Positions 31,106-61,009 of a DNA stretch of 61,009 nt are shown in pieces. This stretch comes from an uncultured bacterium (lineage in GTDB: Bacteria; Omnitrophota; Omnitrophia; Omnitrophales; Aquincolibacteriaceae), in the NCBI GenBank assembly GCA_964482725.1, contig CAYZYT010000014.1:1-61009 (forward strand), given 5' to 3'. The notes under the pieces were generated by a model that was not told where the DNA came from, did not search any database, and saw nothing but the letters and a program-made list of their open reading frames with translations. Position numbers and translations under genes: made by a program. Each line of letters starts with the position of its first letter. Positions within the stretch are counted from its first letter, which is position 1.

Positions 31106-34100
31106 TTACGCAGAACGCGCCGTCGCAAGATACTGATCGCGCATTTGCGTGACGATCTCGCTGACACCGGCGACGTTCAGGAAGCGTTGGAATCTCTCCG
31201 GCGTCACGATCGCATCTCCGTACGTTTTGAGAAGCTCGGCCGCCTGCAAGCTCTTCTCCCCGAAATAAACCATCGCTTTGACATTCAACGTCCCGGCGCC
31301 GGAATTGCGGCTACGGACGGCCTTGCCAAGAAGGCTTCTTGCTTCATCCAGACCGCTCGCGGGCAGCAGGAGCGGCCGGTTCGCTTGACGGAGCTGCCCA
31401 TTGATCTTCTCGAGAAAACTCCGGTCCGCTTCATTGCGTACCAGGACAGCGACCGGCACATCTCCGAGGATCTTCCGGATCACAAGCGCCGCGCCGTGCT
31501 CGATGGCAAATTCGGGGGCAAGCACCAGCACATCGGACGCCGTCAGAGTCTTGTCGCGGAGGAGGACCTTCGCGGCATCGGCAAAACGCTTCTGTTCCTG
31601 AGCGGTTGCTGGCACCGCCAGGTTAAACGCTTCCTGGGCAAAGGCCGTCGGAACAAGGGCGTTGATAACAAGTGTCACAACTGTCGCATCAAAAGTGTAC
31701 GGCACGAGCGAAATGATCCCGTCCGTGATCTTTTCCGTCACGCCGCGGAACCCTTGCATCGTCCCGCCGCCAAGACGCACATTTTCCTCGATGAACGATT
31801 GCACAGTGTAGGTCGTATTCCGTATTCCTTTTTTCGAACCCGTTGAACGTTGCCCATTGACCGAAATCCGACGGACTTCCGCTCGACCTTGGACAGGCTG
31901 AGTGATTTTGATTTCATCCACAACCCTGGCATTCAGTTCTTTTTCCAGAAGTTTCACAATCGTACGGATCTGTTCGATGTTTTTAGCAAGGAGATTTCCA
32001 GAAGCGAGCGGCTGTTCGGCCCGGAGTTTCAAGATCCGCTCCGGCGAAATCTCAAGATCGACCGAGATGGCATTTTTCAGCTGCGTTAAAAGGCCCTCAG
32101 ACCCATCCACAAAGAGTACTCCCAGGCTTGTGGAAGACACGAAGGAAAGCCGCGTCTTGATCCCGGGAGCGCCCTGCGGGAAAGGAGTTCCCTCATCTCC
32201 GATCTCCTGTACCCCGAACGGCCTGAGAAACTCTGCGCGGGTCTTTTCATCTTTATTTCCACGCACTTCCGCGCGAGAAGGGCGCACGGGCCGGAGGGCT
32301 TTGCTGATGCGCAAAGCCTCCTTGGCGATCGCCTCGGATTTAGCGTGAAGCCGAAGCCCGATCAACTGGCCGATCACATACGTCGCAAGGGCTGGATTGG
32401 CCTTGGAAGCTTCAATCAATTGATCATTTTCGGCCGTGGCGATCACTCCGTCGCGGAGCGCCTTCAGCGTCCCCCGGGCAGACGCTTTGAGCGCCTCAAA
32501 GGTTGCAGCCCGCACTTCGGAGCGAGCGCTCTCATTACCCGAGCCTTCGACGAGAGGGTTCCCAAGACGCACCGGCCGTATTTCCAGAATCTGAAATCGG
32601 TAATTATGTTGATCGATCCCGGAGCGATCCTTCTGGGCCAGGAGCGGAATACCCATATGCCATTTTTCACGATAAAGTTTTTCCCCTGAAGGAACCGCTG
32701 GATAAAAATATCCCAAAAGATAATCAAAAACCTGGTATTCGGCATCCTGAGAGTTTTGGATCCCGAGATTCTGAACATCGAGAAGCCGGAACCATGCTTT
32801 TCCGTCTGCGGGGTCATACGGCCCTTCCGAAAAATGGATCGGGACCACCATGTGGGGCATGGGCTTCCCCGGCAGACTTCTTGAGATGATCATGGCGCTT
32901 TCACGATCCACGCGGTGGAACCAAACCTTCCCTTCAGAAAAAAGACTCTTTAAAACAGGGAGATGGACGATCGCCTCTAATCTAGTATAGACATCTTCAT
33001 TCCAGGGCCTCATTTTTGAGAGAAGCGCCGGGGAAAGCACGGTCACAAAAGCCATCACGGCGGGCACGCCTCCCGGGCTGAAACGCGCCTCAGCCTGTTC
33101 TTTGGAAAGGCCGGCCACAACGCTTAACAATCTCTCCAGACGCTCCGGAGACTCGAGACCTTCTTTGATCTTTTGGGACAAGAGTCCGGTCACAGGTTTC
33201 CCTTCACTTACAAACCGCCCGCGGGTTAACGCTTCGAGGTAACTCAAGATATCATTTTTCAGCCTTGTCTCTTTTTCTTCAGATTTTGTCCCCGTGTCCA
33301 CCAACCGAAGAATCTGAACGCCCGGGAAAGGCACTCCGACCGAGGTCGTTTCCATCATTTTCCAAAGAGCCTGGTTTCCGTACCCCTCCCTTGTGATCAC
33401 ATTTCTTAATTCATAGATGCGGGCATCTTCCAAAATCGCTTGATCCCCCAAGATCTCCGCGAAGGCTTCGCGCCCATAGAAAGCACCCCAGGCCTTTTCC
33501 GCTCGCTCCGCGCCGTAACCGAATTCTCCGAGATTGAGCGCCACCATGTACTTCTGGCCCTTCACATCCACGGCATAACCCTGGACCTTCTTTGTGATCG
33601 AATCAAAAGGAACCGCGGTCGAATCAAAATGACGGGCAAGATTCTCGCGAACTACCGGCTGGTTGAGGATCGTCTCGAGTCCAAGATCCTGTGTTTCAAC
33701 ATAATTGTTAAACAGCGCCACCGAAACCTGGACCGTAAGCTTTTCAATGATCTCGAGCGCCTCAAGGTTCCACTGGATCTTTTCGTAGACGCTCTCTGCG
33801 GCTTGGGCGCGCCGGTCAAGCTCCTGGATCTTTGTGATCACAGGGGCCAGCGGCACATCAAACCCCGATAGAAATTCGTTCAGATAGGCAAAAAGATCCC
33901 CTTGCTTGACATGATGCGCGAGACTTAAAAAACCTTCTTTTTCTTTCATCCGGATCTCGCGGAAACCTTCGACGAAACCCAGAATGCCGCGCAGACGTCG
34001 CCCGGCCGACAAGGGTTGAGAATCATCGTCTTTCAGCCAGGTAAATTCCGGTCCCCGTGAGGCTAAAGACTTTGAAAGAAATGCTTTCACCTCGTCCGGA

Positions 34101-37100
34101 GAAAGCTTGAGACCTTCAAAGATCGCGTTCTCTTCTTCCGCGACCCGAATCGTTTCTTCCCACAGTTTGATATGCGCGCGGGCCTGCCCTTTTTCCATAT
34201 CCACCCTGGGAGAAGATTCCAAGATTGAGAATTGAAGATCGCGCCGGCTCCGCGGATCCTGATACCGTTCACGCAGGTCCATGAGCGCCTTGACCAGAGA
34301 ATCGGCTGAAGGCCTGCGCCCGCCCCCTTGCTGCGTGCTGATCTCACGATCATTGTATTCCACAAGGAATCCATTGGTGATCTTCCACTCCCCGGTCCTC
34401 AATTTCGCCACAAGTTGATCGTGCGTTACGTTATCTTTAAAAACATCCATCTCCCGGCCGGTCTTTACTTCCACGATCGTAAAAAGTTCCGGCATGGCCC
34501 CGCCCCAAACTCCGATCAAAGCCGCCATGTTGGTCACCGCTTTCATCATGCTCGTGGCCGAAGCTTCTAAAAACTCATCGGACAGCATGACGGTCGCGGA
34601 AACACCCCGGAAGATCACCGCGGCATCTTGGATGTTGTAATTTTCAATAGCAACAATCTGCTTCTCAAGCCCGAGCAATTTCACAAGTCTCTGGATCTCG
34701 ACAAACATGTTGTGCGCATCTTCGCCAAACTCCCTGCCACCGATCACGATTCGCGCGGCGCTTGCTTTAAATTTTTCAAGTGCGGCGGGATCTCGTGACA
34801 GATTGATGAGGATTTCCAGCCATTTGTCCGGCCCCTTGTACGACACTTGTCGCCGGATGTTTGAAACAATGGGGTTTTTGAGAAGGCTTTCTTTCAACGC
34901 TTCCATGCCCGGCATAGCCTGGAACGCTTCCCACGCTTTTTCATCCCGCAACGCTTCGGTCATAAACCTTTCATAATCCTGAATAAGCTGAATATCGCTG
35001 ACCCCGATGCTTTCCCGGTCTTTCCTGTAACCCGCGATCACTTCATCGATCCATGCGCTGTAGCCTTGTTCTTCCTTGAGCCAGAGCAGGGCCCTCGCAA
35101 TATCCGCCGCCCTGACATGCTCCGCCTTTCTTTGAAACTGGTCTAAAAACCCAGCGTTCGTCTCTTTTCGCAGCGCCCGAAAGACGTCTTCGTCGGACGC
35201 TTCTGGCGAAAGCCCCAGTTTTTCTTTATATTGTTCGATCAATCCTCTCAGGAGGGGCGCCTGCCACTGCTCCAGAAGAACGCCGTTCGTATTACGCATC
35301 CCTTGGTGGTTATACCCCTGCAATTTATTGATGAACGTCGGGACGATCTCACGTGCCAGCACCGGCGTATGTTCATAAAGCCCGACGCCTGTGATCACGT
35401 GGGAAGAAAGCCCGACCGCATCCACAATGTTGATCTTGCCGTTCTTGGTGATATAGCGGCGAAGCACTTCGGGATAACCCAGCATCTCATACGAGGCTTC
35501 ATCTGGGGTGTAAAGGCCCGGACGAAACACGGTGTGATTGATGTGATGATGGATCGCCTCCGGGAAAAGAGGCGTCGGCGTACTCACAAAAACCTCGTTA
35601 TCCACAAAAAGGATCTTTTTCTTGGCAAGGCCCTTCTCCTGAAGTTGCTTGACCAGATATTGGGTGGACCAGCCATAAACAGCCATGTGAACATCGCGCC
35701 AGAGATTGGATTTCCCTTGGACGTCCGGATACACCTCATCAAAAATATGGACCTTCTCGTCGTTCTCATTCTTATACCAGGCGTCGATGTAATAGTTCGA
35801 CATCTCTCCAAAGTGGGTCTCCGTTTTATAAACGTCTACCTGGATCTTTTTTCCGAGGATCCTCTTGGCATGATAGTGGTCCTGATCGACCGCTTTTCTT
35901 CGGAAATCATCACCGACATCGAGCTCGAAAGAAAATCCGAGGCTTTTGTCGCGGGTCAAAACGCCGCGCAAATAATCTCCTAGGGTCCTGCGCCCATTCA
36001 CAACTTCCTCCGGCAATCCCTTGGCAAACTTTTGTCCTTTAATCGTTTCGTAGATCACATTGACGGCCATAATGTCCTTCACCGTTTTCCCGCCTTGAAG
36101 CCCGAAATTTTTCGCCCAGGCCCCGAAAAGATCATGCATCAAAGCCCCCAGTCCGCCTGTCAGTGTTGTCTCCGCCACAAGCCCAACATAACGGCGAACA
36201 TTCTTCGCTGAGGTCGCAAACCGCTTCCCGAGGTTTTTGTTCAGAGCCTCCAAAAGGGTCCGATCGAGCCCGGCTTCAAGCTGACGACTGACCACGGTGT
36301 AATTTTTTAGCGGGGAGTTCTCCGCAACATAATTCCTCAGCTCTGACCGCCCTGAAATTTGAGCCCTCTCCCGGTCTAGTTTTGAGACTTGCGAAAAAAT
36401 ATCCGAAAAAATTTGAGCGTCTTGTTTGTTGATTTCTTGGAAGAACTCCAGCGAGGTCCGGAAATTTAGCGCGGATTGATTCAGGGCGGCAACGGCGTCC
36501 AGCATGCCGTCATAGATCGCCTGAAAGCGCTCCGCTTGTCTGGGATCGATATCTTTAAATCCCTCCCTCACACTCAAAGCGAGCTTTAAATGTCTTTTAG
36601 CATCCCCCAGCTTGAGAACGACCTGATTAAATTCATGGTTCGCGACCAAAACTTCCATAGCTTCACGCTGTTGCGCGCGGATCTCTTCTGTTCGCAAGCC
36701 CTCCGAAGAATCTTTCCCGGCAGGGGCCCCCAACCTTGATTCGGAACGGGACGTCGTCTTTTCGGCCATAAGACCGTCCACGATATGATGCTTAGCCGCT
36801 TTCATATCAGCGAGGAGCTCCCCGAGCGAGGCGTCTGGCTTTATATCCTTGAGGATCGCATAGGCTTTCGCCAGCCCCGGGTTCATGGAACCATCCCCTT
36901 GCCCCGCCGCACCTCGGGCAAGAGCCCCTCTCAACACAGCACCTATTTGAAGGGCGGATCCCAGCTCCATCTTGAGATAATCGATAAGAACAACATCCCC
37001 GCTCCGGGTAAGAATAATATTGGGGCCCTTCAAATCCCACCGAGGAAGGCCCATTTCTTCCAGAACTTCAACCGCCTCCGTAGTCCTGATAAGCACATTC

Positions 37101-40100
37101 AAAACACCATTAAGATACTGAGCGGGATGAGCGGCATGGGTCTTCTCAATAAACTGTTCAAGATCCATTCCGGGGATATACGGATAAACGATATAGCGGG
37201 GCTCGCCTTCGAGGACTTTATCTCTGTCCGGACGGAAAACGAACGGATCATAAACTTTCACATGGATCCCCTTCTCGTCCAGGATCTGATTGATCTTGTG
37301 TTCGCCCGAAATGTTTTGAGGCCTGGCAACACTCAGAAGCTCGTCATTAGAATCCACTTCCTGCTCTTCCTTATGTTCGTCCTGGTAGATTTTAAGAACG
37401 AAGACTTGCCCGGTCGGATCGTCCTTGATCGTTGTCTTATAAACTCTCGCTTGAGGGCGATCGGAATAATGCATTGTCCCCAAAAGCTGAAAAACAACGC
37501 GCTCGGGAAATCTGTCCCCCGCGATCACCGGCCGGAGCGTCAGGGTCTCTTGAGAGATTTCCCGTGCGTCCTGGTCCTCGATGTCCCACTTGGGGATCAA
37601 AGGATCCACGATCTGCGCACTGTTGACAAGCCAGCGGTGCGTTTTTTCCGGAGGAAGGTCAAAGTGAAAAGAAACAAATCCTTTTCGAACACCCGTTACG
37701 TGAAAATTTTCTCCGACGAAAAACTCCTGACCTTTTCCCCCGTCGTCAAAGGGATCCCAAAGCCAGAAATCCGCAGGCTCCCGGGTTTCTTCTTTTTCGG
37801 GGAACTGTTTGGCAAAAACCTCCGAGATCTCCGGGATGAGTTCCAGGGGGACATAAACGGTCCCATCTCGCCATTCTCGGGTTCGATTCTCGATCACAAA
37901 AAATCTTTTTTGGCGGAGCGTCCCATCCAAGGCGCTTTTGCTCTTTCCGATATAAGCTTTGACTCCCGATCGGGATTTAATCTCCAGCCCCATCCAGGGA
38001 GAAATCGCTCCAGGCTTCATGTTGGAAGGAATACCAAAAGCTAACGAAATGGCCTTCCTTTGTTCCGGGGAAAGGACTCTTGAGGCTTCATGCCTCGATT
38101 CGGAACGCGCTGCGTTTTGAGGGATCGCGCCCCAGCTCCAATCGTCGTTCACGAGATATCCGCGAACGGGCTGGCCGTTCCATACCGGGACAAGTGCCGC
38201 GGGAAATTTCTTTTCTTCGAGTTTCTGACGGAGTTCCTCTGGCGTCATGAAATCTGCCGCCCAAGGGAGCTGGATCAAAAATCCGTCATCCACAGGATAG
38301 CCGGCGGCTTCAAGCCGGACCTTCCAACGCTTTGTCTGGAGCGCGCGAGAAGTCTCGGGAGACTCGTCTTTGCCGGGAGGTTCTTTGATGGACGCGAACG
38401 TGTCTTCGTTCCCGAACGGAAAATTCGCGCCGTTGGACATCTTGTCATCACTGTTGCGCTCGAATTTCCACACCCGGACCTGCTTGACGGCCCGGCCGTT
38501 CTCATCGATGCCGTCCCATTTTTTGTCGGCCACGGAAAAATCGATCGGCCGTGTTCCGTCAAGCGGCAGCTCGATCATGCGGTAGGAAGGCATCGCGTGA
38601 GAGGTCTGGGCGCGCAATTCGGGAGAGGCCTTGGAATAATGGACCGGCATGCGCGTCCCATTTACCTCCAGGAGCTCGGAAAGTTTGTCTTTGAGCCGAT
38701 CCTTCTTCTCGATCAACCCTTCGGACATGATCGCAAAACCCTTCGGGAGCCGGATGAGTCCTTTTTTGACTTTTTCCACGAACCGGGCATGCGCTCCGAC
38801 CCAATTGACATCGAGAGGATAAAGCGGGTTATCGATATTGGAATACAGGACCGTATGGACACCAAATCCACCGAGCCAGTTCTTTGCCTCCTGAAGCTGG
38901 AGGATATAATCGAAGGCATCTCCGTGGCCGCCGCCCTGAAGTGCAAGCTTCCCTTTATCTTCCATAAGGGCTTTCCCCGTGGGATTCGCCAGCACGGGAA
39001 GGACTTTCTGCTTCACGACCTTGATCCGGTCCTTCACTCCGAACCAGTCCTGCGATTCAAAATACGCCATCGTCTCAGCCTGGGTCACATCACTCGTCAC
39101 GATGATAAGCGGGAAGATCTTCTTGTGCCCGTAGCGATTCGCAAAAGCCTTGTATTTCTTGATCATCGATCCAAAAAGCGTGTCATCGCTCAAAGGCAGT
39201 CCTTTGAAAAGCCCCTTAGCATACGGGAAATATTCGCGAAATCGGGCGCCGCTTCCGCCGGCCATCAGAATGATCCCAAAAGCCGCCTTGTCTTCTCCTG
39301 CGCCCCAGGACAAAAGGACTTCGCCGGATTTTTCGTCTTCGGGATCGTTCGCCGCCGCAAGTTCCACGGGTTTTGCCAGAGAAAGATCCAGCTCCTTCGT
39401 TTGAGGATGATCGACGAGTCTTTCTTTGAGACGCACGATCTCCGCCCAATCCACGCGCTCTACCTGATCCAGAAGCTGTTCGCGTTGGGCCGCATTGAGT
39501 TCATCCCAGAATCGGAGCACATGCTCCTGCCCGTATTTCGAGAGCGTGTCAGAAGCGGCAGAATACCGTTCTTTTTCTATTTCCTTTTGTCTCTGGAGAG
39601 CCGCCCGGAAAACCGCGAGGCCGCCCACATGCCAGATCCTCAAGCGCCCGTCCGCGGCATGCCAGACCGGGATCTTGTTTTGGCTGAAAACCTTGGCCAG
39701 TTTTTGAAGAGTTCCTTCATAGTCGGCTTGGGTCACTTTCCAGAATTGCGGCATCGTATAGATCCTGATAAGCCCCTTCAATTCGTCTCCGGTAAGGTTC
39801 CGGGCGAGCACTTCCGCAAGGTTGGGACGGTGGAAGAGACCCCGGGCCCAGGAGACCAACGGTTCCACAATGAACGCACCTGCCAGAATCCCCGTTCCCA
39901 AAACGATCGAAAAGCTGGACGCTGCAGCCTTAAGGAATTCCTCAAAGTCTCTCGCTTCAGAGCGGCGATAGGTTTGAACGATGAGAGCCGGAACTCCTGA
40001 AGTAAGAACGCCTTTTTGAACCCCGGTCCTGAACTGGACGCCCGCCGGGAACATGATCGGCCGGAATGCATCTTTAATAGCCCGTCTTTCATGCCCCGCA

Positions 40101-43100
40101 AGGTCACCGTTTTTGACCGTAAACCCTTTCAATTGGACTTCCCGTCCGTTGGCGGCTCCTTTGATCACGAGATCGAATGTTCCGTTCTGCATTCTCTTGG
40201 CCATCGCCACCGCTGCCCGGAGCGCTATGTCCTCCGGATTGCGCGGCACCTTGCTAACGACCCGCTTCAGCGCGCCCGCCATTAAAACGCCCGCCACAAT
40301 AACTCCAACCGTTATCAAAAGCCGAATTTCGGACCGCGCAGTATCTTTCAGCCCGGAACCGGAGGCTCTCATTTTCATCACGGCCGGGTTAAAGAACCAA
40401 AGCGTGACCTCGCGAGCGCGGTTTTCATTGTCGCTCAGGTGGATCACATTCGCTCCGCGGGTCACGGGATTATTGATCAGAAAAATACCGTCTTTTGCCT
40501 TTTGACTTTCATAAGCATCACGACGGATACTCCCGGCCTCGGCTTCTTTCGGATCCGTTTTCCCTCTGAAATACTTCTCCATATCCTGCCAACTTCGGGC
40601 CTTGCCGGGGATACCGCGGAGAAAAAGTGCCGGCACCGAAGTCCCGGGACGTTCGAAGTCGGCGCTAAGCTGAAAGACAAAGTTATTCAGGAAAACAACC
40701 CGTTTCCCGACATGCTCCGCCGGCACACCGGGTTCTTTCTTTAATTCCGTGATAAGAGCGATCGCTCCGTCCGACAACCGTTTCGTATTTGCGCCTTCGC
40801 GCTCCCAGATCTCCAGGGCTTTTTCCGGAGAGATCCCGAGCCGCGACGGGATCTCCTGAGCCCCATAAATGGAAGATGGATCCCATGAGGCGCTAGCACC
40901 AAAGCGATGCTTGTAAAGACCGATGAGCTGGTAAAGGTCGGACTGACTGAGCGCTTCGGCGCCTTTCCCGGCAACGTCATACAGCCGTCCATAATGCTGC
41001 GGCACCATGTTGTTTTCGATCAACCATTCACTCTTGTAAACAAGCGCCTGCTCGCTGTAATAACCAAACTGTTCGATCCGGCGAAGGATCTCTTTCACGG
41101 TCTTGGGATGGAAATACCCCATCGACGGCTTCAGGAGCAAGACGCCGCCGTCAGGGTTCTCGGGGTCCCAAGGCCCTGCAGCATAACGACGAGGGATCTC
41201 CACTTCCACAATACTCTTCCTCGTGGAAGTCGCAGCATTAAGAATGCGAAATGTCATATCCTCAAGAGTGTCTGTGGCGGGCGTCGTAATTCTTCCCTCG
41301 GAACGAGAAGCGCCAGGTTTTCTTAGCGCGGAGCGATTCGCCGTCAAATCTGGAACGGCTGTCTCAGCCTTAAGACCGAGCCTGCTTTTTTGTTCCTCCT
41401 GGATCACCGTCTGGATCATGAGATTATCGAAAGCCCGTAAAAAAAGCCCAGCATAACGCTCTACTTCCTTGCTCAAGGGGCGTCTCTCACCCTGCTCATC
41501 TCCGGAATCTTTCTTTCCGATGAACCAGCGCATGTATGCGGGCGCCCAGCCCAAGAGCGTTGCCCCAAGCAAAGCCGCGACAGCAACCCCGCGTATTTCT
41601 CCGGAAGCCGGCAGCGCAAGAAGTCCCAGAAAAATCGAAATAATGGGATAAACCCAAAGCTCGCTCCTAGTAAAATCAAAAGCATTCAATAAAATGGTCC
41701 ACCTTCGCACCTCCAGCGTCCTTTTCAAAACAGCCTCGGCTTCTTCGAGGGCTGCCACAAGCGAAGCAACGTCGGCCGCTTTATTGACCTTCTCAAAAGA
41801 ATTCTTGAGCGCAATATCTCCTGCCAATATTTCCCATACTTTTGAGGCCTTCGGATAAGCTCTGTTCAATCCCTTCACCCGCTCTTCCAGGGACGCTCCG
41901 ATATCGCGGCGAAGTTCCGATCGTTTGGTATGGGCAGTTAGAAGGTCCAGAGCTACGAGCCGAGCATTAGGAAGGATCGGCTCGGAGGAAACTTGCGGGC
42001 TTAACCTGGCGAGCGTTGTCTCATTTCCAAGCAGAACCGTTCTCGTTTTGGGCATAGCGATCATGCCGGCGGGCCCCGCCACAAGCACGGTATCATCCAC
42101 CAACTGTCCATACCCCTTTAGCTCATGCCGCAAAACGTCCATATCGTCATGGTCATTTTCGCCGCTTTCCGACGGGAAGGCTAAGGCGCCGGCCGAAGCG
42201 ATCGTCCGCTCTCCCTCCGGCAACATGTCCGAAGCCTCCTGCAACAAGGCTTCGACTTTTGCGTTCACTTCCTGGGTTTTGATATCGGCATCGTAGAGCG
42301 GTCGCAGAGTCTTCGCGTAAAAGGCTTCATAGCGCGGATACAAAGGAGAGTTTTTTGGCGTTCTTCCAAGAACCTCCGCGGCATCATCAAGAGCTCTTTT
42401 GGCATCATTTCGGATCTGCATCCACTCATCAAGTTCTTCTATGGCCCTATAAAGCGGTTCGTTGCCCGCCCCTTCACTACCTTTTCCATCACGAACCTCC
42501 GCTCGTTGGGCCGGTTTCTTCATGACCCAGACTTTTTTGGCGGGCGCTACCGGTGTCGCCGGAGCAGGATTTGCCTGGGGTTCGCTTTGGGCTTTGACCT
42601 CTCCCCGGTCCACGGCTTCGATCTCTTTTCTTAATGCCTCGTCCTGGATAACCGGCCGGTCCGCCTTGCGCTTCAGCCCAACCTTCAGGAAGAGCTCGAC
42701 GCCTTTTTTGTCTTTGCCGAACACCGTCTCAAGGAAAGCGTCCAACTGGTACAGAGAAATGGGATCAAAATCAAATTTTACGACCCCCTTCGCGCGGAAT
42801 TTTTCCGGAAGATCCTCGGGATTTTTGAACTCTATTTTGGTGACCAGAATCCTGTGAAGATTCTCAACCGTCATGCGCCTGCCGCCGAAGGTGATGTCCG
42901 GATCATTGACAAGGATCTCGGTCAAAAATTGGGCCAAGGTCTTGCCGCGCCACTCTTCGAGTTCGTAGGGCGTCAGGTCCAGATCCGCCTCGCTCCCCTC
43001 ACTCCTCAACTCGGAACGGGCGAGATCAGGACGTTGCTGGGGTATTCCGAAAGGTGTCTTGATCGCGATGATCCTGCCTTCCTGATAGGGATGCTCTTCG

Positions 43101-46100: not shown

Positions 46101-49100
46101 CCGTAAACCTGGTCCGCGAAATAAACCTGTTTTGATTTGTCATTCTTCAAGGCCGCCCACAAATCCTGGATGCGCTCTTCGGTAAGATGGGTCCGTTCCA
46201 TGAATTCAGCAGCAGAAATAATGGGGATACCGCGCCCCTGCACCTTCGGAAGATTTTCTTCGAGCTCTTTTTTCGCCGGCGCGGGAAGCTCGGCCTCGAG
46301 GCCCTCCAGCCCCTTCATTGCGGCATAATGCATGGCGCTGTAGTGCCGGCTCAGAAGCCCGAGACGCGCGACATCGCTGCCGTCCCAAACCATGATCTCC
46401 TGCGCAGCCAATTTCCACGGATCCGCGATCGCAAGTTCCAGCACTTTGGTCACCGTCTGAAGCGTAAAAGGGCCGTTGCCGGGCTTAAAAAGAAGTTCTC
46501 CGCCAAAGCCGCTTCCGGGACGGTTCGTCACGGGGATCCCCTGGGTCGGCGCTTCGCGCTTTTGAGCCTCGAGGATCCTGGCGGCAATCGCCGGGATCTC
46601 CGCGCGATAAGCCGCGTCATTAAACCTCAGTTCCGAGCGACCGACGAATTTCTGATGGTTCGTAAGCGCGCTTTTGTACACATCCATATACTCGGGAACG
46701 ATCTCTTCCCATGAGCGAACAGACTCCATCGCTCTTTTTTGCATTCTTCCGAAACCTTCGGGATCACGTTCGTAGCGATTTACAGCCCGCGCCGTTGCCA
46801 GATAAAGATCGTCGCTCAAATCGATACGATCCATATCTCCCTGGCTCACTCCTTTGAGATAACCAAAACGGAAACCCGTGCTTTTCCCAGGGAATTCATC
46901 CGGATCCACCACCGTGTCATGAAGACCGCCCGTTGCCCGAACCACAGGGACAACGCCATAACGCTTCATTTGCTGCTGAATAAGTCCGGCAGGCTCGAAC
47001 CGCGAAGGAACAAGTCCGATATCGGCCGCGGCGAGCGTTTCTCGTACGATCGGAGCCCCCATCACCGGGATAAATTTGAATCTCCCGGGAAATTCCCTTT
47101 CTAATTCATAAAATCTTTCTTCCAAATCCCTGTCGCCGGTACCCACAACCGCTAAAAACGCGCCCAATCCGCCTTCACTTTCTTTTCTGACAATGCGCGC
47201 CGCTGCGCTGACGACCCAATCCATCCCTTTCTGCTGACGAAGGCGGGAAACCGCCACGATAAGAGGTGCCCGGAGGTATTCGGCCTTATAATCTTTTTCG
47301 TTTTTGTCGAAAAAATGTCTTTTAAGAAATTGCTCTTTATTGACCTGCTTGGGTGAAAGATCCTGTAAAGAATAGGTGGCCTGAATGTCCGCAAGGCTTT
47401 CGGGATTCCAAAGATTCGCATCCAGAGCATTCAGGATCCCCACATAATTTTCACCGCGGCTTCGCAACGCCCCGTCAAGGCCGAAACCTCCCGCCGGAGT
47501 CAGTGTTTGATCCCGAAAAGATTTGCTAACCGTAATGATCTTATCCGCAAAAACAATGCCCCCTTTAGCAAGGTTCGCCTGGCCGTGGAATTCTAACCCT
47601 CCCAGAGGATTCAGCTCGCGCCACGGGATCCCCATCCCCGCCAGCTGCCAGCCCCGTTCATGCATCGGATAGCGAAGCTGATACGCATCTCCAAGATTGT
47701 GGACCGTATAAACGGTTGCCGCATCATGGAACTGGTGATCTTTCACAAACCGCATGAACGGGATCACGAGTGCCGTCTGAGCATCATGGGCCTGAACAAT
47801 ATTAGGACGAAGCTTAAGAAGATCCATCGCCTCGACGGCGGCCCTGGAAAAAGCGGCAGCTTCCCAAAAGGTATCCGCCTCTTTTTCGTTATACCCGTGC
47901 CTGAAATATTGGGCGATCCGTATAAAATAGATCGTCACATGTTCCAGCTCGGCCTTAAAAACCTCACAGGGAAGATCTCCGGCGCTCGTGGGAATCTTGA
48001 AAGCCAGGATCGGTTTATTTTGAACAGGGGTCTTCTGTTGAACCCAAATATTGGCATGTTCCGGGAGAATCACGGAAACATGCATTCCCTCATGCATGCG
48101 CTTGATCGCGGGGACAAATTCACGAAGAACGTCTTTCACACCCCCTGCTTCAAAAAAGGGCGCCATCTCATACGCCACGTGAACGATCCTCTTGATTTCG
48201 CCGGTTTCCACTGCCCTGACTTCCGAGCGGCGGAGGTCTTCGGTCTTGAGTGTTTCCAGGACCTGAGCCTCTGACATAAAAGAGCGGATCATTTCCGGAG
48301 CAACGCTCAGTCCGCCTGCCTGTTCCTGAACCGGCAGATGAAAGAATTGATCGCCCCGCCCGGCATGTGCCGACCAGGCATACCGACCGTTTTTATAGGA
48401 AAAAATAAATTGAAGGCTTTTGGGGGCATCCAGAGATACACCGACTGTCACAATGCGCTCACCGGCGCTTGCTCCGGATATGAAAATATTTTCAGGTTTA
48501 ATGCCCCAGGGCTTCTCGAGAACGCCTCTGAGCTTCTCCGCCGCTTCATCCAGCCTCATTGAAGCCTCGGCGAGGCTCACATCATCCGTCGTCGATACCG
48601 CTTCAACAGAATGCCAGTGTTCGAGTCTTGCTTCGATCTCTTCAATGGCGGCTTCCGGGGACAGAACGGACGGGATCAGGCCCGCATAAGACGTGGGGTT
48701 ATTTTTCAGTTCTGCGACCAGCGTCCGAAAAAGAGCCGGGTGACGTTTGATCTGACGATCCAGCCCGAATCCCGGCGTCCCGAAAGAAATAATCGTTCTC
48801 AAATCCTCAAAAAACTTTTGATCGAACTGCACCTCCGGCCAAGAGAGGTCTTCCGTCCCTCTCACTTCCGAACGACCATCCAGAAAATCGCGAACCTCTT
48901 CTTTGTACTCGACGGCTCTCGCTGCATCCTGCCGTCTTTCTTTCATAAATTGAGGGAATTGCTCGAAAAAAAACGCCGGCCCTGCCATTTTCAGGCGTGA
49001 ATATTCATTCCTGAGCCTGGACAATAAATCCTGGGCGCGCTCCCAACGGTGCGTTTCATGCCGCAAAACATTCCTTTTCTTATTTGCTCGCCGCCGCGAG

Positions 49101-52100
49101 TACTCACGTTCCAAGCTTTTCGTTAATTGCTCTAAATGAGTAATGCGCAACCAGTAACCAGTCCGGGCGGCTAACCATGGAAGGCCCAACGCCGCGGCTT
49201 TAAATAGCTCCCGCAGTTCCGAACGAAAGCGCTTGGCTTCGTAAGCGGCGGCCGCGGCAAAGGCGAGCATATTTTCCGGCGTGGTGTCGATATCGCAGCT
49301 CGAGCAGAAGATAAAAGGCCGTTTCCCCATGATCCTGAAGATCCATTGAGCGTCGTGCCTTATGACCTTGGGATGTTCGCTGGGAAGGATGCTCAGCGTG
49401 TCCATATTCCCCAAAATGACGGGCCTGCGCTCATGGAGCTGAGTGTCTTGAACGGCATCGTAAACCTCGGGAAGAAGATAGATGCTGTCCACGCTCAGGA
49501 TATCCACATCATACCGGACCATATAAGGAAGCTTCTTCTCCGCATCATCAGGGCTTTGGGGACGGCAGGGGTGGGCGGCCGAAAGGGCTCCCAGATGACG
49601 GACCTCTCGCGAAAGACGGTTCACCGGGTCCACGGAATATTTCAAAAATTGCTCCGGGCTGAGCATGCCCGTGGGCCGAGGATCCAGAAATACCACGATG
49701 TCCGCTCCGCCTTCTTTGATGAGCCGCTCCACGTTCGCCGCGATCAGGCGCTCCGAGTATTGGAAGAGCGCCTGGAACATCTTGACGCCCTCGTCGTCTT
49801 TAATGCCGTCTTCGCGATCCATCATGGCCAACATTGCCTCACTATCTCCCATCAGGAACGCGGCTAGCGTGTAAGGCGCGATCGAATAGGCGATCTTGGG
49901 CGTATTGGCGCCAGCCTTCGCATCCAGCTTCTTCAAAGTTTCAACCGCCAAACCAAGACGGCCGGTCGTAGCAGGATCCACATCCTTGAGCGAATGCCAA
50001 TCGATCCCCGCAGCCGAAAGCGTCATGTGGAGCTGAGGACTTGCGACAAGTTCTTGGAGCGCGATCAGAGTTTCCTTGCCGTTCACCGTATGGATCTTGC
50101 CCGAAGCCGTCCATTCCGCGCGTTTTTCAGGCGGAAGATTCGCAAGGATCACGGCTTCATGTTCGGCGCTAAGATCCATCATCGCGGGGATGGTCTTTGC
50201 CCCGTATTTTTTGATCGCCCAGGCAAGTACCGCAGCTTGCGTGTCCGGATTTGTCGCGGCCTCTTCGATCGAAACTTGTTCTTTATGCTCCGCGTTATAA
50301 AGTTTCACGGCCGCGAACCCCAAAAGCGGCACGAACGCGCGGGCGGCGGCCATCTTTTCCAGCGCCGCCCGTCTCGTTTCGTACATTTCGCGGATTTCGG
50401 AACGCGAGCCAGAGGCTTTTTCAGCCGCTGCGCGGGCCTGCCTCACGGCGCGGAGCGAAGCGATTGTGATAGGCGTCGCAAAGGATGGGAGCAAGAGAAG
50501 CGCGCGCGTAAGCATCGCATGATGCTGCACATCCGGGAACGCCCACTTGACTGAAGTATAGAGCGCGATCCAGAGAAGGACCGCGGGAACAAAGCTGACC
50601 ATAAAAATATTAAAATAATGGCCAGAAAGATCCCGGATCCCGGGTTTGCGCACCGCTCCGGCCTTCTCACCCCTCACCTCGGAACGGGCCGTTCTTGAAA
50701 TCCATCGTTCGACCGATTCCTGGACGATGGCGTTCCGGTCCTCGGGCGTATTTTGAAGCACACGCTTGAAAGCAGAAAGTCTTTCTGAGGTGTAGGCGCC
50801 GATCGATGCGAGGAAATCAAAACGGTCATTTTCGTCCGGAAGAAGCTTGGCAAGCTCCGGACTGTAAAAACCAAAGCCGGCATTCCGGGCCATAAATTCG
50901 TGTCCGACAAGGAAATCCCCGCCCTTAAGAAAATCCTCTCCGACCTCACGGTTGTAGGACGCCCCGGCGGTTGCAAGGACACCGGGCAATTCCACAAGCC
51001 CCTTCTCTTCGAGGAACGGCATATCGGGTTTGTTGATATCCACGCCGCTGAAAACACGAAGGCCGTATTGTTTCGCAAGAGCAACGACTTTGACGATCTC
51101 TTCATCGCTATTGCGGTGCGGCATGATCGCGATCCCCGGCACGCCGATCTCGACAAGATATTTGAAAAGCGATTCGAGATGGTCTTCTTCATTGGTTTTA
51201 GAACCTTTGGAATCCCCAAGATACGGATAGATCGGGATCCCACCCGCTTTTTTGATGATCTCAACGACCGTTTTCATGCTCGGAGATTCTTCGGCATCCG
51301 GCGCGATAAAACAGGAAAGTTTTGCCGAGGGTTTCAGAAACGCACCCCGGAGGATCTCCATCGGAACATCAATGTCGCCGGCTTTATACCCCGCTACCGC
51401 CTTGGCGGCCAAAACCTCATCGCCCAGGATCTCTTTATAGAAGGAGATGTTATCGCCGAGCCGGTACGCCACGCCGGCCATAAGATGCCGGTCCGTGGTG
51501 TTCCGGTCCTGGACCTGGAGTTTCGCTTCTTCAAGGATATTTTTGTCATAGTCCACACTCACAGAAATGCCGAGATCTTTCAGCTTTTGGTTCACTTTAC
51601 TGATCATGGCACGATTCCGGCGCTCTTTCGACTCGCGGACTTTGCGGAGAAGCTCCCGGATCAGCGGATGGCTCGTATCGGGCAAAGCATGGCAAAGAAA
51701 ATAGATCATGTTGGGAACGCCCGGCGCATTCCAGATAAGGTTCCGGAAAATTTCCGGGGCTTCCTCGCCAAAACTGACCCGCATCTCGAACCCGGATGTT
51801 TTTTTCATCCCGAGAATTTCGGCGGCTTCGAGGAAATCTTGGTTCCCGGCGGCGGTGTCATGATCGATGATCCCGCCGTTCCGCAGCCCTGCACGGAACA
51901 AGCGGTAGGCGATCTCTTCAGGATAATACGGGCTGTAGGAGAATTTGCTGTGGACGTGAACATTGTTGTTCTTGGAAGCGGGCGCCATAGAGATTTCGCC
52001 CCGTTCTGCCATGATCGCCAGCGCCTGAAGCGCATCCTGGCGAACGGCTTTGGAAGGATCGCGCAGCTTTTTTTCGAGTTCGTTCTGATGAGGAGTCGCG

Positions 52101-55100: not shown

Positions 55101-55759
55101 GCCGTGAGCTTGCGGTTGCTGAAAACGGTCCGGTAAGCTTCGCGGCCTTCTCTGTATTCTTTCGAATTTTCGACGCCCCAACCTTCGGCTGAGGATATCG
55201 GATGGAGGATGGAGGATGACGTTTTGGCTTTTACGCCCTCCGCCCTCCGCCCTCCGCCCTCCTGATTTATAAGAAACGCTTCGACGCCCGTGAGCTCTCC
55301 GGCCTGCATAAGCTTGCCGTTTACAAGCTTCTGGAGTGCGGCGTCCCTGGGGAAAAAATTAAAAAGTTCTGGCTGCAGCTTGTTACCCGCGCCTTCCAAA
55401 AGGATCAGCTTTACACCGTAATTTTTGGAGAGATGTTCGAGGATATTCTTGATGTTTGTTTGCGCGTCATAATTCGCGTGGGCTTCCTGGATGTGAATTA
55501 AAACCTGACCGCCGGATGACGGAGGGAGGATGGCGGAGGGCGTAGAAGCAGGAATGAGGTCGGTGACTTTGCCGAGCTCCGCGGGGATCTTGAAGGAAGA
55601 GACAAGTGACGGGAGCTCCGCGTTTGCAGCCTGAGCGATCGGGGCAGGAGAAAGCGTGTTGGTCACAAAGAAAGTGACGATAATAATACTCGAAAAAAAT
55701 CGCTGTAATCGCTTGAGGCGGCTCATGAAATGAATGTTTTCCCTTTCGGAATTATTCAT
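31106..55759 (-). CDS. Giant 8,217-aa membrane-anchored multi-enzyme protein, with modules separated by R-[S/A]-E-x-R junctions
   Basis: This is a single uninterrupted ORF of 24,654 nt, and all the domain signatures listed below lie in this one frame. An alternative start at M12 (55726) gives a signal-peptide-like N-terminus: [35 protein letters not shown]. Confidence 0.9.
   Translation of the reverse strand: [8217 protein letters not shown]
31109..31870 (-). other. Giant protein aa 7964-8217: C-terminal module, possibly related to the C-terminal half of 56037..58250
   Basis: Weak collinearity: [35 protein letters not shown] compared with AMLVSSAGILARMLSEEKTARLLQEAVGEGAIVALAQD. Confidence 0.25.
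34160..36334 (-). other. Giant protein aa 6476-7200: GT35 alpha-glucan phosphorylase-like module
   Basis: [107 protein letters not shown]. Confidence 0.6.
36755..37507 (-). other. Giant protein aa 6085-6335: protein-kinase-like module (atypical)
   Basis: QVFVLKIY (beta3 Lys), [15 protein letters not shown] (hinge), [13 protein letters not shown] (catalytic loop without HR), VVLIDY (in place of DFG). Confidence 0.5.
38108..39562 (-). other. Giant protein aa 5400-5884: UDP-sugar pyrophosphorylase (UDPGP/UAP family) module
   Basis: [79 protein letters not shown]. Confidence 0.7.
39851..40321 (-). other. Giant protein aa 5147-5303: split TM pair enclosing a ~110-aa loop module
   Basis: [23 protein letters not shown] ... 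RSEAR ... [24 protein letters not shown]. Confidence 0.6.
40385..41182 (-). other. Giant protein aa 4860-5125: NDK-like module 2
   Basis: [57 protein letters not shown]. Confidence 0.45.
41510..41668 (-). other. Giant protein aa 4698-4750: TM hairpin 3
   Basis: [23 protein letters not shown] and [23 protein letters not shown]. Confidence 0.7.
43040..43552 (-). other. Giant protein aa 4070-4240: class I SAM-dependent methyltransferase module
   Basis: [46 protein letters not shown]. Confidence 0.75.
44030..44692 (-). other. Giant protein aa 3690-3910: P-loop kinase module (uridine kinase/PRK-like)
   Basis: Walker A [17 protein letters not shown], and LLVDGKYAL. Confidence 0.6.
44810..45457 (-). 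other. Giant protein aa 3435-3650: NadD/cytidylyltransferase-like nucleotidyltransferase module
   Basis: [34 protein letters not shown], a variant of the GxFxPxHxGH motif. Confidence 0.45.
45740..46522 (-). other. Giant protein aa 3080-3340: NDK-like module 1
   Basis: [12 protein letters not shown]..., [27 protein letters not shown]; paralogous to aa 4860-5125. Confidence 0.45.
46640..48214 (-). other. Giant protein aa 2516-3040: GT5 glycogen/starch synthase module
   Basis: [94 protein letters not shown]. Confidence 0.85.
49235..50242 (-). other. Giant protein aa 1840-2175: uroporphyrinogen-decarboxylase (URO-D)/MtaA-like barrel module
   Basis: [80 protein letters not shown]. Confidence 0.55.
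50405..50671 (-). other. Giant protein aa 1697-1785: TM hairpin 2, bracketed by RSEVR and RSEIR
   Basis: [20 protein letters not shown] and [21 protein letters not shown]. Confidence 0.6.
51020..51976 (-). other. Giant protein aa 1262-1580: PHP-domain phosphoesterase module
   Basis: [40 protein letters not shown]; later IAIMPHRN and VFSGVDIN. Confidence 0.6.
52424..52639 (-). other. Giant protein aa 1041-1112: TM hairpin 1, bracketed by RSEMR and RSEVR
   Basis: [22 protein letters not shown] and [16 protein letters not shown]. Confidence 0.7.
53354..53854 (-). repeat. Giant protein aa 636-802: internal tandem duplication (2 x ~78 aa, helical HEAT-like)
   Basis: [47 protein letters not shown] compared with [47 protein letters not shown]. 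Confidence 0.8.
55193..55262. repeat. GGATGG-family palindromic element inserted in-frame in the giant gene (aa 167-190, [24 protein letters not shown])
   Basis: GGATATCGGATGGAGGATGGAGGATGACG-TTTTGGCTTTTAC-GCCCTCCGCCCTCCGCCCTCCGCCCTCC. The paralog lacks these ~24 aa at the aligned position. Confidence 0.8.
55512..55542. repeat. GGATGG-family half-element in the giant gene (aa 73-83, [11 protein letters not shown])
   Basis: CCGGATGACGGAGGGAGGATGGCGGAGGGCG. Confidence 0.55.
55622..55726 (-). other. Giant protein: signal-peptide or signal-anchor segment (aa 12-46)
   Basis: Basic n-region RLKRLQR, hydrophobic [12 protein letters not shown], and an AQA-A site. Confidence 0.6.
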
Positions 55760-55766
55760 GGAAGAT

Positions 55767-55795
55767 TTTATAGAAAGATAACATAGTTTTCTAAA
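55767..55795 (-). promoter_or_regulatory. Promoter candidate for the giant gene
   Basis: On the minus strand: TTTAGA, 17 nt, TATAAA. The -10 ends ~8 nt before the ATG at 55759, which fits better with translation from M12 at 55726. Confidence 0.3.
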
Positions 55796-55929
55796 ATTTC
55801 AAGGGGTTGAAAAAGGATTTATCAAGGTCTGTTAAACGCATTAGAAATAAGGCGCCTATTTGGAGGCATTGCTATAAATTACTATTTTTTAACCGGTTTC
55901 GAGCTTGGGAGAAAATCTGTCGCAAGATA

Positions 55930-55958
55930 TTGATTTTAAAGGGGTTCTGGGCTATATA
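55930..55958 (+). promoter_or_regulatory. Promoter candidate for 56037..58250
   Basis: TTGATT, 17 nt, TATATA. A small hairpin (AGTCC-ACTTC-GGACT) and GGAG lie before the ATG. Confidence 0.4.
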
Positions 55959-56036
55959 TATAGCATAGTCCACTTCGGACTAGGATTCCGAGGCCTGGGC
56001 ATGAAGTAAATGTTTTGACACTCGGAGCAAGTAAAA

Positions 56037-58797: not shown

Positions 58798-58805
58798 TTT
58801 TTCCC

Positions 58806-60830: not shown

Positions 60831-61009
<179 letters not shown>

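Follow-up and report, generated by a model that had tools for sequence, protein, structure and literature searches.

What does a bacterium produce from a single gene of almost 25 kb that strings together enzymes of unrelated families? The question is raised by a stretch of 61,009 nucleotides, referred to below as the window, from an uncultured bacterium of the phylum Omnitrophota (contig CAYZYT010000014.1, assembly GCA_964482725.1). Its minus strand carries an open reading frame (ORF) at positions 31106-55759 that comprises 24,654 nt, begins with ATG, has a single (terminal) stop and encodes 8,217 amino acids (aa). The gene and its product are called the giant. A sequence-only reading of the window had reported an unbroken 24.65-kb minus-strand frame, which is borne out by the ORF listing (8,217 aa, zero in-frame stops), and had described it as a chain of unrelated, single-copy metabolic enzymes. 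Coordinates are those of the window, and all features of the giant lie on the minus strand.

Integrity of the giant gene

The entire ORF looks coding, since codon-position GC is uniform: each 500-codon block has GC1 of ~0.6, GC2 of ~0.4 and GC3 of ~0.6. The GC content of the window is flat at 0.50-0.55, and at this composition 8,217 stop-free codons arising by chance is, by sequence statistics, an event that can be called impossible. The nine peptide motifs quoted in the sequence-only reading all lie in the frame of the giant (aa 2919, 3323, 5104, 3703, 4082, 5498, 5608, 6241 and 7065). The description of the modules as unrelated and single-copy agrees with a self-BLAST of the giant, which gave zero internal repeats; the only tandem repeats in it are two short G-rich arrays. 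No intrinsic terminator was found 3' of the ORF. The N-termini of homologues align to Met12 (window position 55726) and an SD-like (Shine-Dalgarno-like) sequence, GAAAGGGAAAA, lies upstream of it, so Met12 is probably the true start and the product probably comprises ~8,206 aa.

It is hardly credible that misassembly, a chimeric contig or a decaying pseudogene left open by chance accounts for the ORF. The source is probably a metagenome assembly, which speaks for such an error. Against it stand the uniform GC and coding signal, the intact delimiters and catalytic motifs in every cassette, and the commonness in the family of members of 5-7.8 kaa (thousand amino acids). In addition, the first and last domains, termed head and tail below, share one frame and are the same domains that open and close shorter complete homologues, and the synteny of the flanks is kept in 13 genomes; this argues against a chimeric contig or a hidden frameshift. 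The giant ORF is shown to be a real gene on the chromosome of a Candidatus Omnitrophota bacterium.

A repeated delimiter between cassettes

The giant contains 20 copies of the pentapeptide R-S-E-x-R versus 0.19 expected from composition, and R-A-E-x-R is present in 4 further copies. The same motif is found 366 times in 79 related loci (4.7 copies expected) and 757 times in 136 further family members totalling 418,194 aa. It is absent from the 28 other ORFs of the window and from 119 stand-alone GlgA (glycogen synthase) proteins, and the other ORFs of the related loci, ~150,000 aa together, contain ~5 copies. No mention of an RSExR-type motif was found in West-Roberts 2023 (bioRxiv 10.1101/2023.11.21.568195), in Nielsen & Lui 2026 (bioRxiv 10.64898/2026.06.07.730766) or in the results of a full-text literature search, which returned unrelated papers only.

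Between head and tail the motif delimits ~24 cassettes of 72-1,270 aa each. The GlgA match at aa 2524-3030, for example, falls between the delimiters at aa 2511 and 3041. In the giant, and in most cases in the subject protein too, the BLAST blocks common with paralogues start and stop at delimiters (giant aa 2179-2300, 2511-3034, 3052-3350, 3357-3916, 3917-4237, 4613-4824, 4824-5121 and 6469-7757), and 72% of the ends of non-head blocks lie within 30 aa of a delimiter versus 18% at random positions. The alignments show that cassettes have been swapped between paralogues exactly at the delimiters.

The sequence upstream of the delimiters is made up of small residues and that downstream is Glu-rich. 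The two delimiters that lie within AlphaFold2 (AF2) models are RSETR at aa 624 (53876-53890) and the variant RAEVR at aa 7959 (31871-31885), which aligns with the pre-tail RSExR of most homologues; both sit in linkers with a predicted local distance difference test score (pLDDT) below 50. The third codon positions of the motif and the codon for x vary freely, and the free variation of the third positions indicates selection on the peptide. The codon families are restricted: across 366 sites (loci L002-L080) the first Arg is encoded by CGN in 97% of copies and by CGY in 81%, and Ser by TCN in 93%. Codon-pair context accounts for only part of the CGN bias at the first Arg. The last Arg is unbiased family-wide, yet it is encoded by AGR in 14 of the 20 copies in the giant.

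The enzyme cassettes

Pfam and NCBIfam scans were run on ten overlapping 1,000-aa pieces of the giant and later on single cassettes, and PDB sequences were searched as well. The PHP, URO-D/MtaA, GT5, SAM (S-adenosylmethionine) methyltransferase and UDP-sugar pyrophosphorylase modules named in the sequence-only reading are all confirmed by Pfam, NCBIfam and PDB matches (34, 89, 327, 60 and 25 bits, respectively). Its kinase-like, GT35, NadD-like and P-loop modules also gave matches, which are weak or fall under the curated cut-offs. Of its two NDK-like (nucleoside diphosphate kinase-like) modules, the second has a weak Pfam match and the first has none and is tied to the second only through shared matches. 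The catalytic signatures of the recognisable cassettes are shown by motif comparison to be largely kept, as far as sequence can tell. The unannotated cassettes, including the first, yielded no further domains against PDB sequences and Pfam at E<=1.

Cassette M1 (aa 629-1035, 52655-53875) belongs to no recognised family and has the variant delimiter RAETR inside it at aa 1021 (52685-52699). Between RSEMR at aa 1036 (52640-52654) and RSEVR at aa 1113 (52409-52423) lies M2 (aa 1041-1112, 52424-52639), which consists of a hydrophobic helical hairpin (aa 1050-1068 and 1079-1097). M3 (aa 1118-1691, 50687-52408) is a PHP phosphoesterase with an HxH motif (VHVH) and two cysteines (Cys1356 and Cys1483); it matches PF02811 with 34 bits, the 3',5'-bisphosphate phosphatase model NF041577 with 42 bits and PDB 3e0f at 6e-7. 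It is followed by RSEVR at aa 1692 (50672-50686), by M4 (aa 1697-1785, 50405-50671), which has a single hydrophobic segment (aa 1715-1733), and by RSEIR at aa 1786 (50390-50404). M5 (aa 1791-2178, 49226-50389) is a methyltransferase of the URO-D/MtaA-CmuA type (PF01208, 89 bits; TIGR01463, 52 bits versus a cut-off of 235) with the pattern H2063-P-C2065 ... C2152/C2155, and it holds three of the six cysteines of the giant. The delimiter behind it, RSELR at aa 2179 (49211-49225), lies 8 aa past the end of the URO-D match.

M6 (aa 2184-2295, 48875-49210) has no recognised family, and the whole unit is common to P0011 and L009, where the BLAST block (aa 2179-2300) has a delimiter at either end in query and subject alike. 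No family was found for M7 (aa 2301-2510, 48230-48859), which lies between RSEVR at aa 2296 (48860-48874) and RSEVR at aa 2511 (48215-48229).

M8 (aa 2516-3040, 46640-48214) is a complete GT5 glycogen/starch synthase (GlgA). It covers positions 2-476 of the 477 of TIGR02095 with 327.0 bits (cut-off 328.45), matches PF08323 with 156 bits (cut-off 22.7) and matches PDB entries 6gne, 1rzu and 2qzs at 1e-43 to 1e-47. In E. coli GlgA the catalytic and substrate-binding motifs include the Lys of KxGGL, the His of HN, the R..K of RL..QKG and the Glu of EPxGL. M8 keeps the Glu (EPAGL), the His of HN and RLRQQKG, and has Glu in place of the KxGGL Lys (FEAGGV). Leaving aside one fragment of an orthologous giant, M8 is 30-36% identical to stand-alone GlgA and 25-38% identical to GlgA cassettes in other giants, and these values are uninformative as to a recent capture of a housekeeping glgA.

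RSELR at aa 3041 (46625-46639) separates M8 from M9 (aa 3046-3345, 45725-46624), which has an NDK-like C-terminal motif (NGWHGSD) and is paralogous to M14. M9 has no Pfam match, and it matches a cassette of L010 and L004 that is also matched by M14. After RSEAR at aa 3346 (45710-45724) comes M10 (aa 3351-3917, 44009-45709), in which a nucleotidyltransferase-like motif (NWGH) is combined with that of a P-loop kinase (GPSGSGKST); Pfam and NCBIfam gave only weak matches (NadD-like, 15 bits; P-loop kinase, E 0.02-0.2), and the block is common to P0001-P0005 at 30-57% identity. M11 (aa 3923-4247, 43019-43993), between RSEVR at aa 3918 (43994-44008) and RSELR at aa 4248 (43004-43018), is a class I SAM methyltransferase (PF13489, 60 bits; PDB 3cc8, 2e-7), and its block at aa 3917-4237 is common with P0006. 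M12 (aa 4253-4612, 41924-43003) has no recognised family, and the variant RAEVR splits the unit at aa 4419 (42491-42505). RSELR at aa 4613 (41909-41923) precedes M13 (aa 4618-4818, 41306-41908), a unit common to L004 and P0008 that contains a second hydrophobic hairpin (aa 4701-4719 and 4725-4743).

M14 (aa 4824-5141, 40337-41290), which follows RSEGR at aa 4819 (41291-41305), is NDK-like (NVIHLSD); its match to PF00334 (25 bits, with a cut-off of 27) is confined to the last third of the model, and NF001908 gives 26 bits. The NDK catalytic-His motif NxxHxSD is present in both M9 and M14, and neither reaches a curated NDK score. RSEIR at aa 5142 (40322-40336) abuts the hydrophobic segment (aa 5145-5167) of M15 (aa 5147-5265, 39965-40321). 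M16 (aa 5271-5884, 38108-39949), behind RSEAR at aa 5266 (39950-39964), also opens with a hydrophobic segment (aa 5280-5302) and continues as a UDP-sugar pyrophosphorylase of the UAP1/AGX type that keeps GGxGxR (PF01704, 25 bits; PDB 9g53 and 4bma, 1e-11).

M17 (aa 5890-6337, 36749-38092), flanked by RSESR at aa 5885 (38093-38107) and RSESR at aa 6338 (36734-36748), is protein-kinase-like. Its match to PF00069 (20.6 bits) is under the cut-off, and the kinase Lys, Asp and Asn are kept (VLKIY Lys, WDLKGPN, LIDY). M18 (aa 6343-6470, 36350-36733) has no recognised family and is followed by RSELR at aa 6471 (36335-36349). M19 (aa 6476-7745, 32525-36334) is a conserved block of 1,270 aa with an alpha-glucan-phosphorylase-like region, which scores 28 bits with TIGR02094 (cut-off 192) and 22.8 bits with PF00343 (cut-off 27). 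GT35 alpha-glucan phosphorylases carry their pyridoxal phosphate (PLP)-binding Lys in the motif EASGTSxMK, and EASATSMMK is present in M19. Over its whole length M19 is 42-56% identical to P0013-P0017, L003, L007, L008 and L013, and the orthologue P0017 has a precomputed PF00343 match. RSEVR at aa 7746 (32510-32524) is followed by two short cassettes for which no family was found (aa 7751-7958, 31886-32509), with RAEVR at aa 7829 (32261-32275) between them.

The conserved head and tail

The protein opens with a probable Sec-type signal peptide (MSRLKRLQRFFSSIIIVTFFVTNTLSPAPIAQA/AN, 55625-55726) that begins at Met12, where the homologues begin. It has a basic n-region, a hydrophobic core and an AQA/AN site, and the alignment shows that AxA is kept across the family. 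The head itself (aa 12-623, 53891-55726) is N-terminal in all 45 homologues found to have it: residues ~12-640 of the giant match the extreme N-terminus of every head-bearing homologue in BLAST. In the alignment H89, H94, E122, G123, E160, E197, Y202, R481 and T505-G-G-F-H509 are invariant. The AF2 model of the head has a pLDDT of 78.7 and consists of an alpha/beta core broken by a helical insertion of ~280 aa, with most of the invariant residues at or just after the ends of beta-strands. The head has a putative metal-dependent active site.

The head profile matched 9,293 cluster representatives in a library of 1.84 billion proteins, 5,569 of them at E<=1e-30. In the 150 best matches the head is N-terminal without exception, and their lengths range up to 7.8 kaa. 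At least 480 head-bearing loci, again with the head N-terminal, are present in species-representative genomes; the named organisms are all Omnitrophota, with several paralogues per genome.

The arrangement of the head is like that of the Tiki/TraB/PrgY/ChaN/erythromycin-esterase superfamily (PF04187 and relatives), in which H...H, E, E and GGxH likewise stand at or after the ends of beta-strands of an alpha/beta core, and whose conserved catalytic residues are GxxH, E and GxxH. Unlike that superfamily, the head has the extra ~280-aa helical insertion, and no match is significant. PF04187 matches the GGFH region with E of 0.08-0.1 in 4 of 19 members, Foldseek with the head model returned weak matches to EreC and BcR135 (E 1.6-5.6, TM score <=0.25), and PDB sequence and profile searches with the head gave no match.

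The tail (aa 7964-8217, 31109-31870) forms the extreme C-terminus of the closer homologues and ends in ATARSA-COOH. Residues ~7,965-8,217 of the giant match the extreme C-terminus of eight homologues in BLAST, to which a profile search adds two. The last ~165 aa of the tail form a Rossmann-like alpha/beta domain in the AF2 model (pLDDT 77-93), for which Foldseek gave only generic Rossmann-fold matches (E>0.03). The terminal R-S-A (31109-31120) is among the best-conserved positions of the tail, and more distant family members end in KSA, SAA, IAA or AAA-COOH. Protein ends in Ala-Ala are recognised by proteases specific for C-termini, such as ClpX or Tsp, and the C-termini of the family resemble such ends. 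These small-residue C-termini (homologues P0007-P0308) also resemble the first three residues of the delimiter.

Homologues and gene order

A search with aa 3050-8049 of the giant returned seven proteins, all of several kaa and each with a different set of enzyme Pfam families, and a search with aa 1-2500 returned 45 proteins of the same multi-enzyme kind. Every homologue with a source name comes from Candidatus Omnitrophota/Omnitrophica. The gene order xth, orf204 and the gene for a 737-aa protein, followed divergently by the giant, mqnA and orf199, is at least partly kept in at least 13 Omnitrophota genomes. The xth product is 81-89% identical to that of most syntenic Omnitrophota metagenome-assembled genomes (MAGs) and 69% identical to that of L067.

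The sequence-only reading had proposed a search of related MAGs for orthologous giant genes, and such genes are found there, in synteny, at sizes of 3,180-3,750 aa. At the orthologous locus, with mqnA after the stop, three genomes encode proteins of 3,180, 3,723 and 3,750 aa, compared with the 8,217 aa of the giant. The head, M19 and the tail are kept at this locus, and the cargo between head and M19 has grown from ~1 kaa to ~5.8 kaa. In the closest relative by xth (89% identity) the part in common within the first 3,920 aa of the relative's own giant is the head only, which is 61% identical.

The divergent intergenic region of 277 bp (55760-56036) separates the giant from the 737-aa gene (56037-58250, plus strand). 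The latter encodes a head-only paralogue with a signal peptide and the head motifs IQIQDVHAH ... VTGGFH; it has no Cys and no RSExR. Its orthologues are 38-69% identical, and its divergent position is kept in 12 loci. No Pfam match was obtained for it, and its C-terminal domain is unlike the tail profile. A role as a trans-acting partner of the giant is possible.

Same-strand tandem arrays of family members occur in L001 (JAZDJU010000098.1, positions 1-26111), L017, L020, L056 and L078. The array in L001 consists, head to tail, of a partial ORF of 1,003 aa, the 4,251-aa P0023 and a hexokinase-bearing member of 5,358 aa, and its members are Cys-poor and rich in RSExR.

Cysteine depletion and hydrophobic segments

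Only 6 of the 8,217 residues of the giant are Cys (0.07%) versus 1.09% in the 28 other ORFs of the window, a 15-fold depletion (Poisson P~1e-30). Across the family the median is 0.05%, and the Cys content of stand-alone GlgA is 0.77%. The three Cys of M5 fall in an H-x-C...C pattern, which binds zinc in the MtaA/CmuA (MT2) corrinoid methyltransferases, and are putative zinc ligands. As these Cys match that pattern, it can be argued from the sequence that only indispensable Cys were retained and that M5 would be functional.

Seven strong hydrophobic segments (Kyte-Doolittle >=1.6) are present in the giant, namely the hairpins 1050/1079 and 4701/4725 and the single segments at 1715, 5145 and 5280. 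Family-wide, 33% of hydrophobic segments begin within 30 aa after a delimiter versus 13% at random positions. In several complete homologues the signal peptide is the sole strongly hydrophobic segment.

Processing, membrane topology and alternative explanations

The account favoured here, if tentatively, is that the giant is a polyprotein-like precursor that is exported or inserted by Sec and is cut, or at least hinged or bound by one partner, at RSExR. It would be made as a single precursor, and Sec export or insertion would start at the N-terminal signal peptide, and the hydrophobic segments found inside the chain where cassettes begin would serve as additional topogenic signals. Its RSExR sites would be cleaved, or a single shared partner would recognise them, and enzymes of nucleotide-sugar, alpha-glucan and nucleotide metabolism would be supplied in a fixed ratio at the cell envelope or host interface. 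Candidates for the enzyme that would recognise the sites are the conserved head and the neighbouring head-only paralogue. The polyprotein reading draws on the cassettes being complete enzymes with spacers of ~10 aa on each side, and on the hydrophobic segments at cassette starts, which are like internal signal sequences. In addition, four invariant residues in free, disordered linkers at every boundary fit a site-specific protease or docking receptor and not a hinge. The sequence-only reading had listed a polyprotein and a scaffolded metabolon among its explanations, and both are live options. Head, tail, RSExR delimiters, Cys depletion, signal peptide and hydrophobic segments had escaped it.

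Several points weigh against the polyprotein account. Cleavage at RSExR is purely inferred, and topology and signal peptide were judged from a hydropathy scan only. The needs of the cassette enzymes for ATP, UTP, ADP/UDP-sugars, SAM and PLP fit an exported location badly, and the charges around the 1050/1079 hairpin, which are positive on both sides, favour cytoplasmic flanks. RSExR and any substitute motif are lacking in 13 of 46 head-bearing proteins (about a quarter of the first 52 homologues), and Ser-to-Ala variants of the delimiter occur. The first Arg is encoded by AGR in 3% of motif copies versus 20-23% elsewhere and Ser by AGY in 7% versus 33%; this codon-family bias may reflect common descent or a signal at the nucleic-acid level. 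Membership of the head in the Tiki/TraB/ChaN/erythromycin-esterase superfamily is suggestive, a lead and no assignment. Pfam and NCBIfam detected no protease domain in the giant, which also speaks for an explanation in which the protein is never cut. The giant would then be a scaffold that stays in one piece and is tethered to the membrane by its hydrophobic segments, with most cassettes on the cytoplasmic face as a metabolon of fixed stoichiometry for the metabolism of sugar nucleotides, glucans and nucleotides in a very small cell, and RSExR as a hinge or as a docking motif for a common partner. This explanation, which is somewhat unlikely, would account for the cytoplasmic cofactors used by all recognisable cassettes, for the seven hydrophobic segments and for the positive flanks of the 1050/1079 hairpin. 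Nielsen & Lui 2026 (10.64898/2026.06.07.730766) weigh an inner-membrane anchor with cytoplasmic domains for 46% of long Omnitrophota proteins. However, a cleavable-looking signal peptide is kept family-wide, and in the complete homologues that have M19 and tail and no further hydrophobic segment the cargo would follow the signal peptide out. Four invariant residues would be needless for a mere hinge, and extreme Cys depletion is unexpected in cytoplasmic enzymes, as the 0.77% in stand-alone GlgA illustrates.

The signal peptide and the cofactor needs would be compatible if the protein were delivered into another cell. The giant would in this case be an effector array like the MARTX toxins, with head and tail serving export or translocation, hairpins that insert in a target membrane, and cassettes freed in a host or prey cell, where ATP, UTP, SAM and glycogen are at hand and where they would redirect nucleotide and glucan pools for the epibiont. 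Conserved ends around fast-shuffled enzymatic cargo at one orthologous locus are consistent with this, and the family is Cys-poor, as is typical of substrates translocated unfolded. Seymour 2023 (PMC10066038) reports Omnitrophota as host-dependent or predatory and a giant protein as up-regulated on attached cells of V. archaeovorus. The effector explanation is nevertheless quite unlikely: no secretion-system or pilus genes lie near the giant in the window, Pfam found no RTX repeats, cysteine protease or known translocation domain, and the cargo resembles ordinary metabolism and not toxins. Very unlikely, in turn, is a delimiter that acts as nucleic acid, as a recombination junction or as a signal for mRNA processing, pausing or re-initiation, with RSExR merely its translation. 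The exchange of cassettes at the delimiter points would agree with it, as would the restricted codon families (CGN 97%, TCN 93%), which codon-pair context does not fully explain. However, no more than ~8 nucleotides are fixed, too few for a specific recombination site, and the motif is seen only in frame within family proteins. The Ser codon family could have been locked by descent under selection for Ser, and Seymour 2023 (PMC10066038) found no catalytic RNA domains in giant ORFs. As for the polyprotein account, in its most specific form RSExR would be a processing code found only in Omnitrophota, by which the Tiki/TraB-like head or its paralogue cuts the Sec-exported, cysteine-free precursor at every delimiter and frees a shuffled, fixed-ratio set of active housekeeping enzymes outside the cytoplasm of the producer, on its surface or in an attached host or prey cell; in this form the reading is unlikely.

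Few known genes are larger than the giant ORFs of Omnitrophota, and the one in the window is a tractable 8-kaa member of a family of more than 9,000 clusters whose building plan can be read from sequence. RSExR makes the question of whether and where such giants are processed directly testable. If it is a cleavage or docking site, giants can be cut in silico into foldable units, metaproteomes can be searched for the predicted termini, and head-linker-reporter constructs can be tested in E. coli. If it is only a linker, it can still serve to parse domains precisely and to define a family that covers a large amount of unannotated protein sequence. The depletion of Cys alongside kept catalytic residues poses the question of where enzymes dependent on ATP, UTP and SAM act once exported, which bears on the exploitation of hosts by ultra-small epibionts. 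The processing code, if true, would be the first polyprotein strategy to deploy enzymes of central metabolism outside the cell, and the cleavage points so far missing for the giants of the phylum would be found.

Comparison with published giants and other systems

The sequence-only reading had held that a chain of enzymes on this scale was not a described architecture. This claim falls, since the homologues are from Omnitrophota and multi-enzyme giants of the phylum have been published (Seymour 2023, West-Roberts 2023, Nielsen & Lui 2026). Seymour 2023 (PMC10066038) reported giant ORFs of >20 kb as common across several classes of Omnitrophota and called them "poorly understood". West-Roberts 2023 (10.1101/2023.11.21.568195) described "Archaeovorin" giants with GT5 glycogen-synthase-like domains and methyltransferases, and raised the cleavage of Omnitrophota giants as an unresolved matter with cleavage points unknown. 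Nielsen & Lui 2026 (10.64898/2026.06.07.730766) described "multi-enzyme metabolic clusters", in which starch synthase (PF08323, in 153 of 779 long proteins) and methyltransferase (PF08241, in 137) are the Pfam families met most often, and found signal peptides or transmembrane helices in 94%.

The giant resembles these proteins in its phylum, in an ORF of >20 kb, in many enzyme Pfam families with GT5/GT1 and methyltransferases the commonest, in a signal peptide with scattered transmembrane helices, and in poor conservation and fast evolution. At 24,654 nt it passes the >20 kb mark of Seymour, and at 8,217 aa it is under the cut-offs of 10 kaa (Nielsen & Lui) and of 30 kaa used for catalogues. 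PHP, URO-D, Glyco_transf_5/GT1, Methyltransf, NDK, UDPGP, Pkinase and Phosphorylase occur in it once each and none is dominant, as the class criterion has it. The Archaeovorin type combines glycosyltransferases and methyltransferases with glycoside hydrolases (GH), C39/S8 peptidases, NUDIX and SecA_DEAD domains, and of this set the giant has GT5/GT1 and methyltransferases; no GH, peptidase (C39/S8), NUDIX, SecA_DEAD or dockerin match was obtained in it with Pfam and NCBIfam at E<=0.01. The head, tail, RSExR, Cys depletion and head-only partner were not found in the published texts. The giant is a mid-sized member of the known giant-protein phenomenon of Omnitrophota and no new architecture.

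The MARTX toxins of Vibrio are also huge and low in Cys, with conserved ends around variable, recombining enzymatic modules. Glycine-rich RTX repeats, a C-terminal type I secretion signal and a cysteine protease domain that is activated by InsP6 and cleaves after Leu set them apart; Pfam and NCBIfam detected none of these in the giant. Processing between modules has been shown for MARTX and is only proposed here, and MARTX cargo consists of toxins whereas that of the giant consists of metabolic enzymes behind a Sec signal peptide. Viral polyproteins and the RgpA/Kgp/HagA proteins of Porphyromonas gingivalis, which are cut at Arg/Lys, share with the giant complete units, short linkers and one repeated motif, and flavivirus polyproteins also have internal hydrophobic segments at unit starts. 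Their cleavage is known whereas that of the giant is putative, and RSExR is no known site of their proteases. AROM, CAD, fatty-acid synthase, nonribosomal peptide synthetases (NRPS) and polyketide synthases (PKS) likewise have several catalytic units per chain. Unlike the giant, they are cytosolic, carry consecutive steps of one pathway or carrier domains, and have no signal peptide, repeated delimiter or shuffling of cassettes among paralogues. A giant of the NRPS/PKS, adhesin, RTX or Ig-repeat kind was considered and ruled out, no such domains being present.

Neighbouring genes

The other genes of the window are ordinary and include xth, mqnA, a split transketolase, GGT, an M24 peptidase, an ABC-2/GldG-like gene and a CHASE2-GGDEF gene; no secretion, pilus, glycoside-hydrolase or transposase genes are present in it. 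The 204-aa product of orf204 (58360-58974, plus strand) has no Pfam match and is 34-53% identical in 13 loci, where the gene lies between xth and the head-only gene. Its 3' end overlaps that of xth, on the opposite strand, by ~95 nt. An rRNA operon, represented by a 5S rRNA gene (60545-60661, minus strand) and a 23S rRNA 3' end (60834-61009, minus strand), ends ~5 kb from the giant locus. A phage or plasmid origin is ruled out by flanks that consist of conserved chromosomal genes and this operon end.

Small dispersed repeats

A hairpin repeat is dispersed in this part of the window, at 55181-55262 (minus), 57420-57495 (plus), 58790-58880 (minus) and 27287-27355 (plus), with partial copies at 30684-30703 and 55521-55540. 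In it a G-rich (GGAGGGC/GGATGGC)n arm is joined by a short loop to its complement, a (CCATCCT)n arm, and stretches of ~110-140 nt that hold it have folding energies of -33 to -52 kcal/mol. The copy at 55181-55262 on the minus strand is an in-frame insertion in the head (aa 167-193, GGGRRAEGVKAKTSSSILHPISS) and forms a loop with pLDDT below 50. The repeat is also in frame in the 737-aa partner (DGGWRMAANEKPETPSSILPPSS) and is intergenic after xth. Similar peptides (GGGRKAEG...SSILHP...) occur at non-homologous positions of the head in other genomes. It looks like an element of the REP/RPE (repetitive extragenic palindrome/Rickettsia palindromic element) type that tolerates in-frame insertion.

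An array of AACG(C/G)GC-type repeats lies at 12030-12120 (minus strand), upstream of the likely true start of an HI0933-like flavoprotein gene. Its translation, TTRNGQRATKRRSLTVER, resembles the '..ATRNAQRAT..RSLSVERS..' inserts in several heads of other genomes, and the array may represent a second small mobile repeat.

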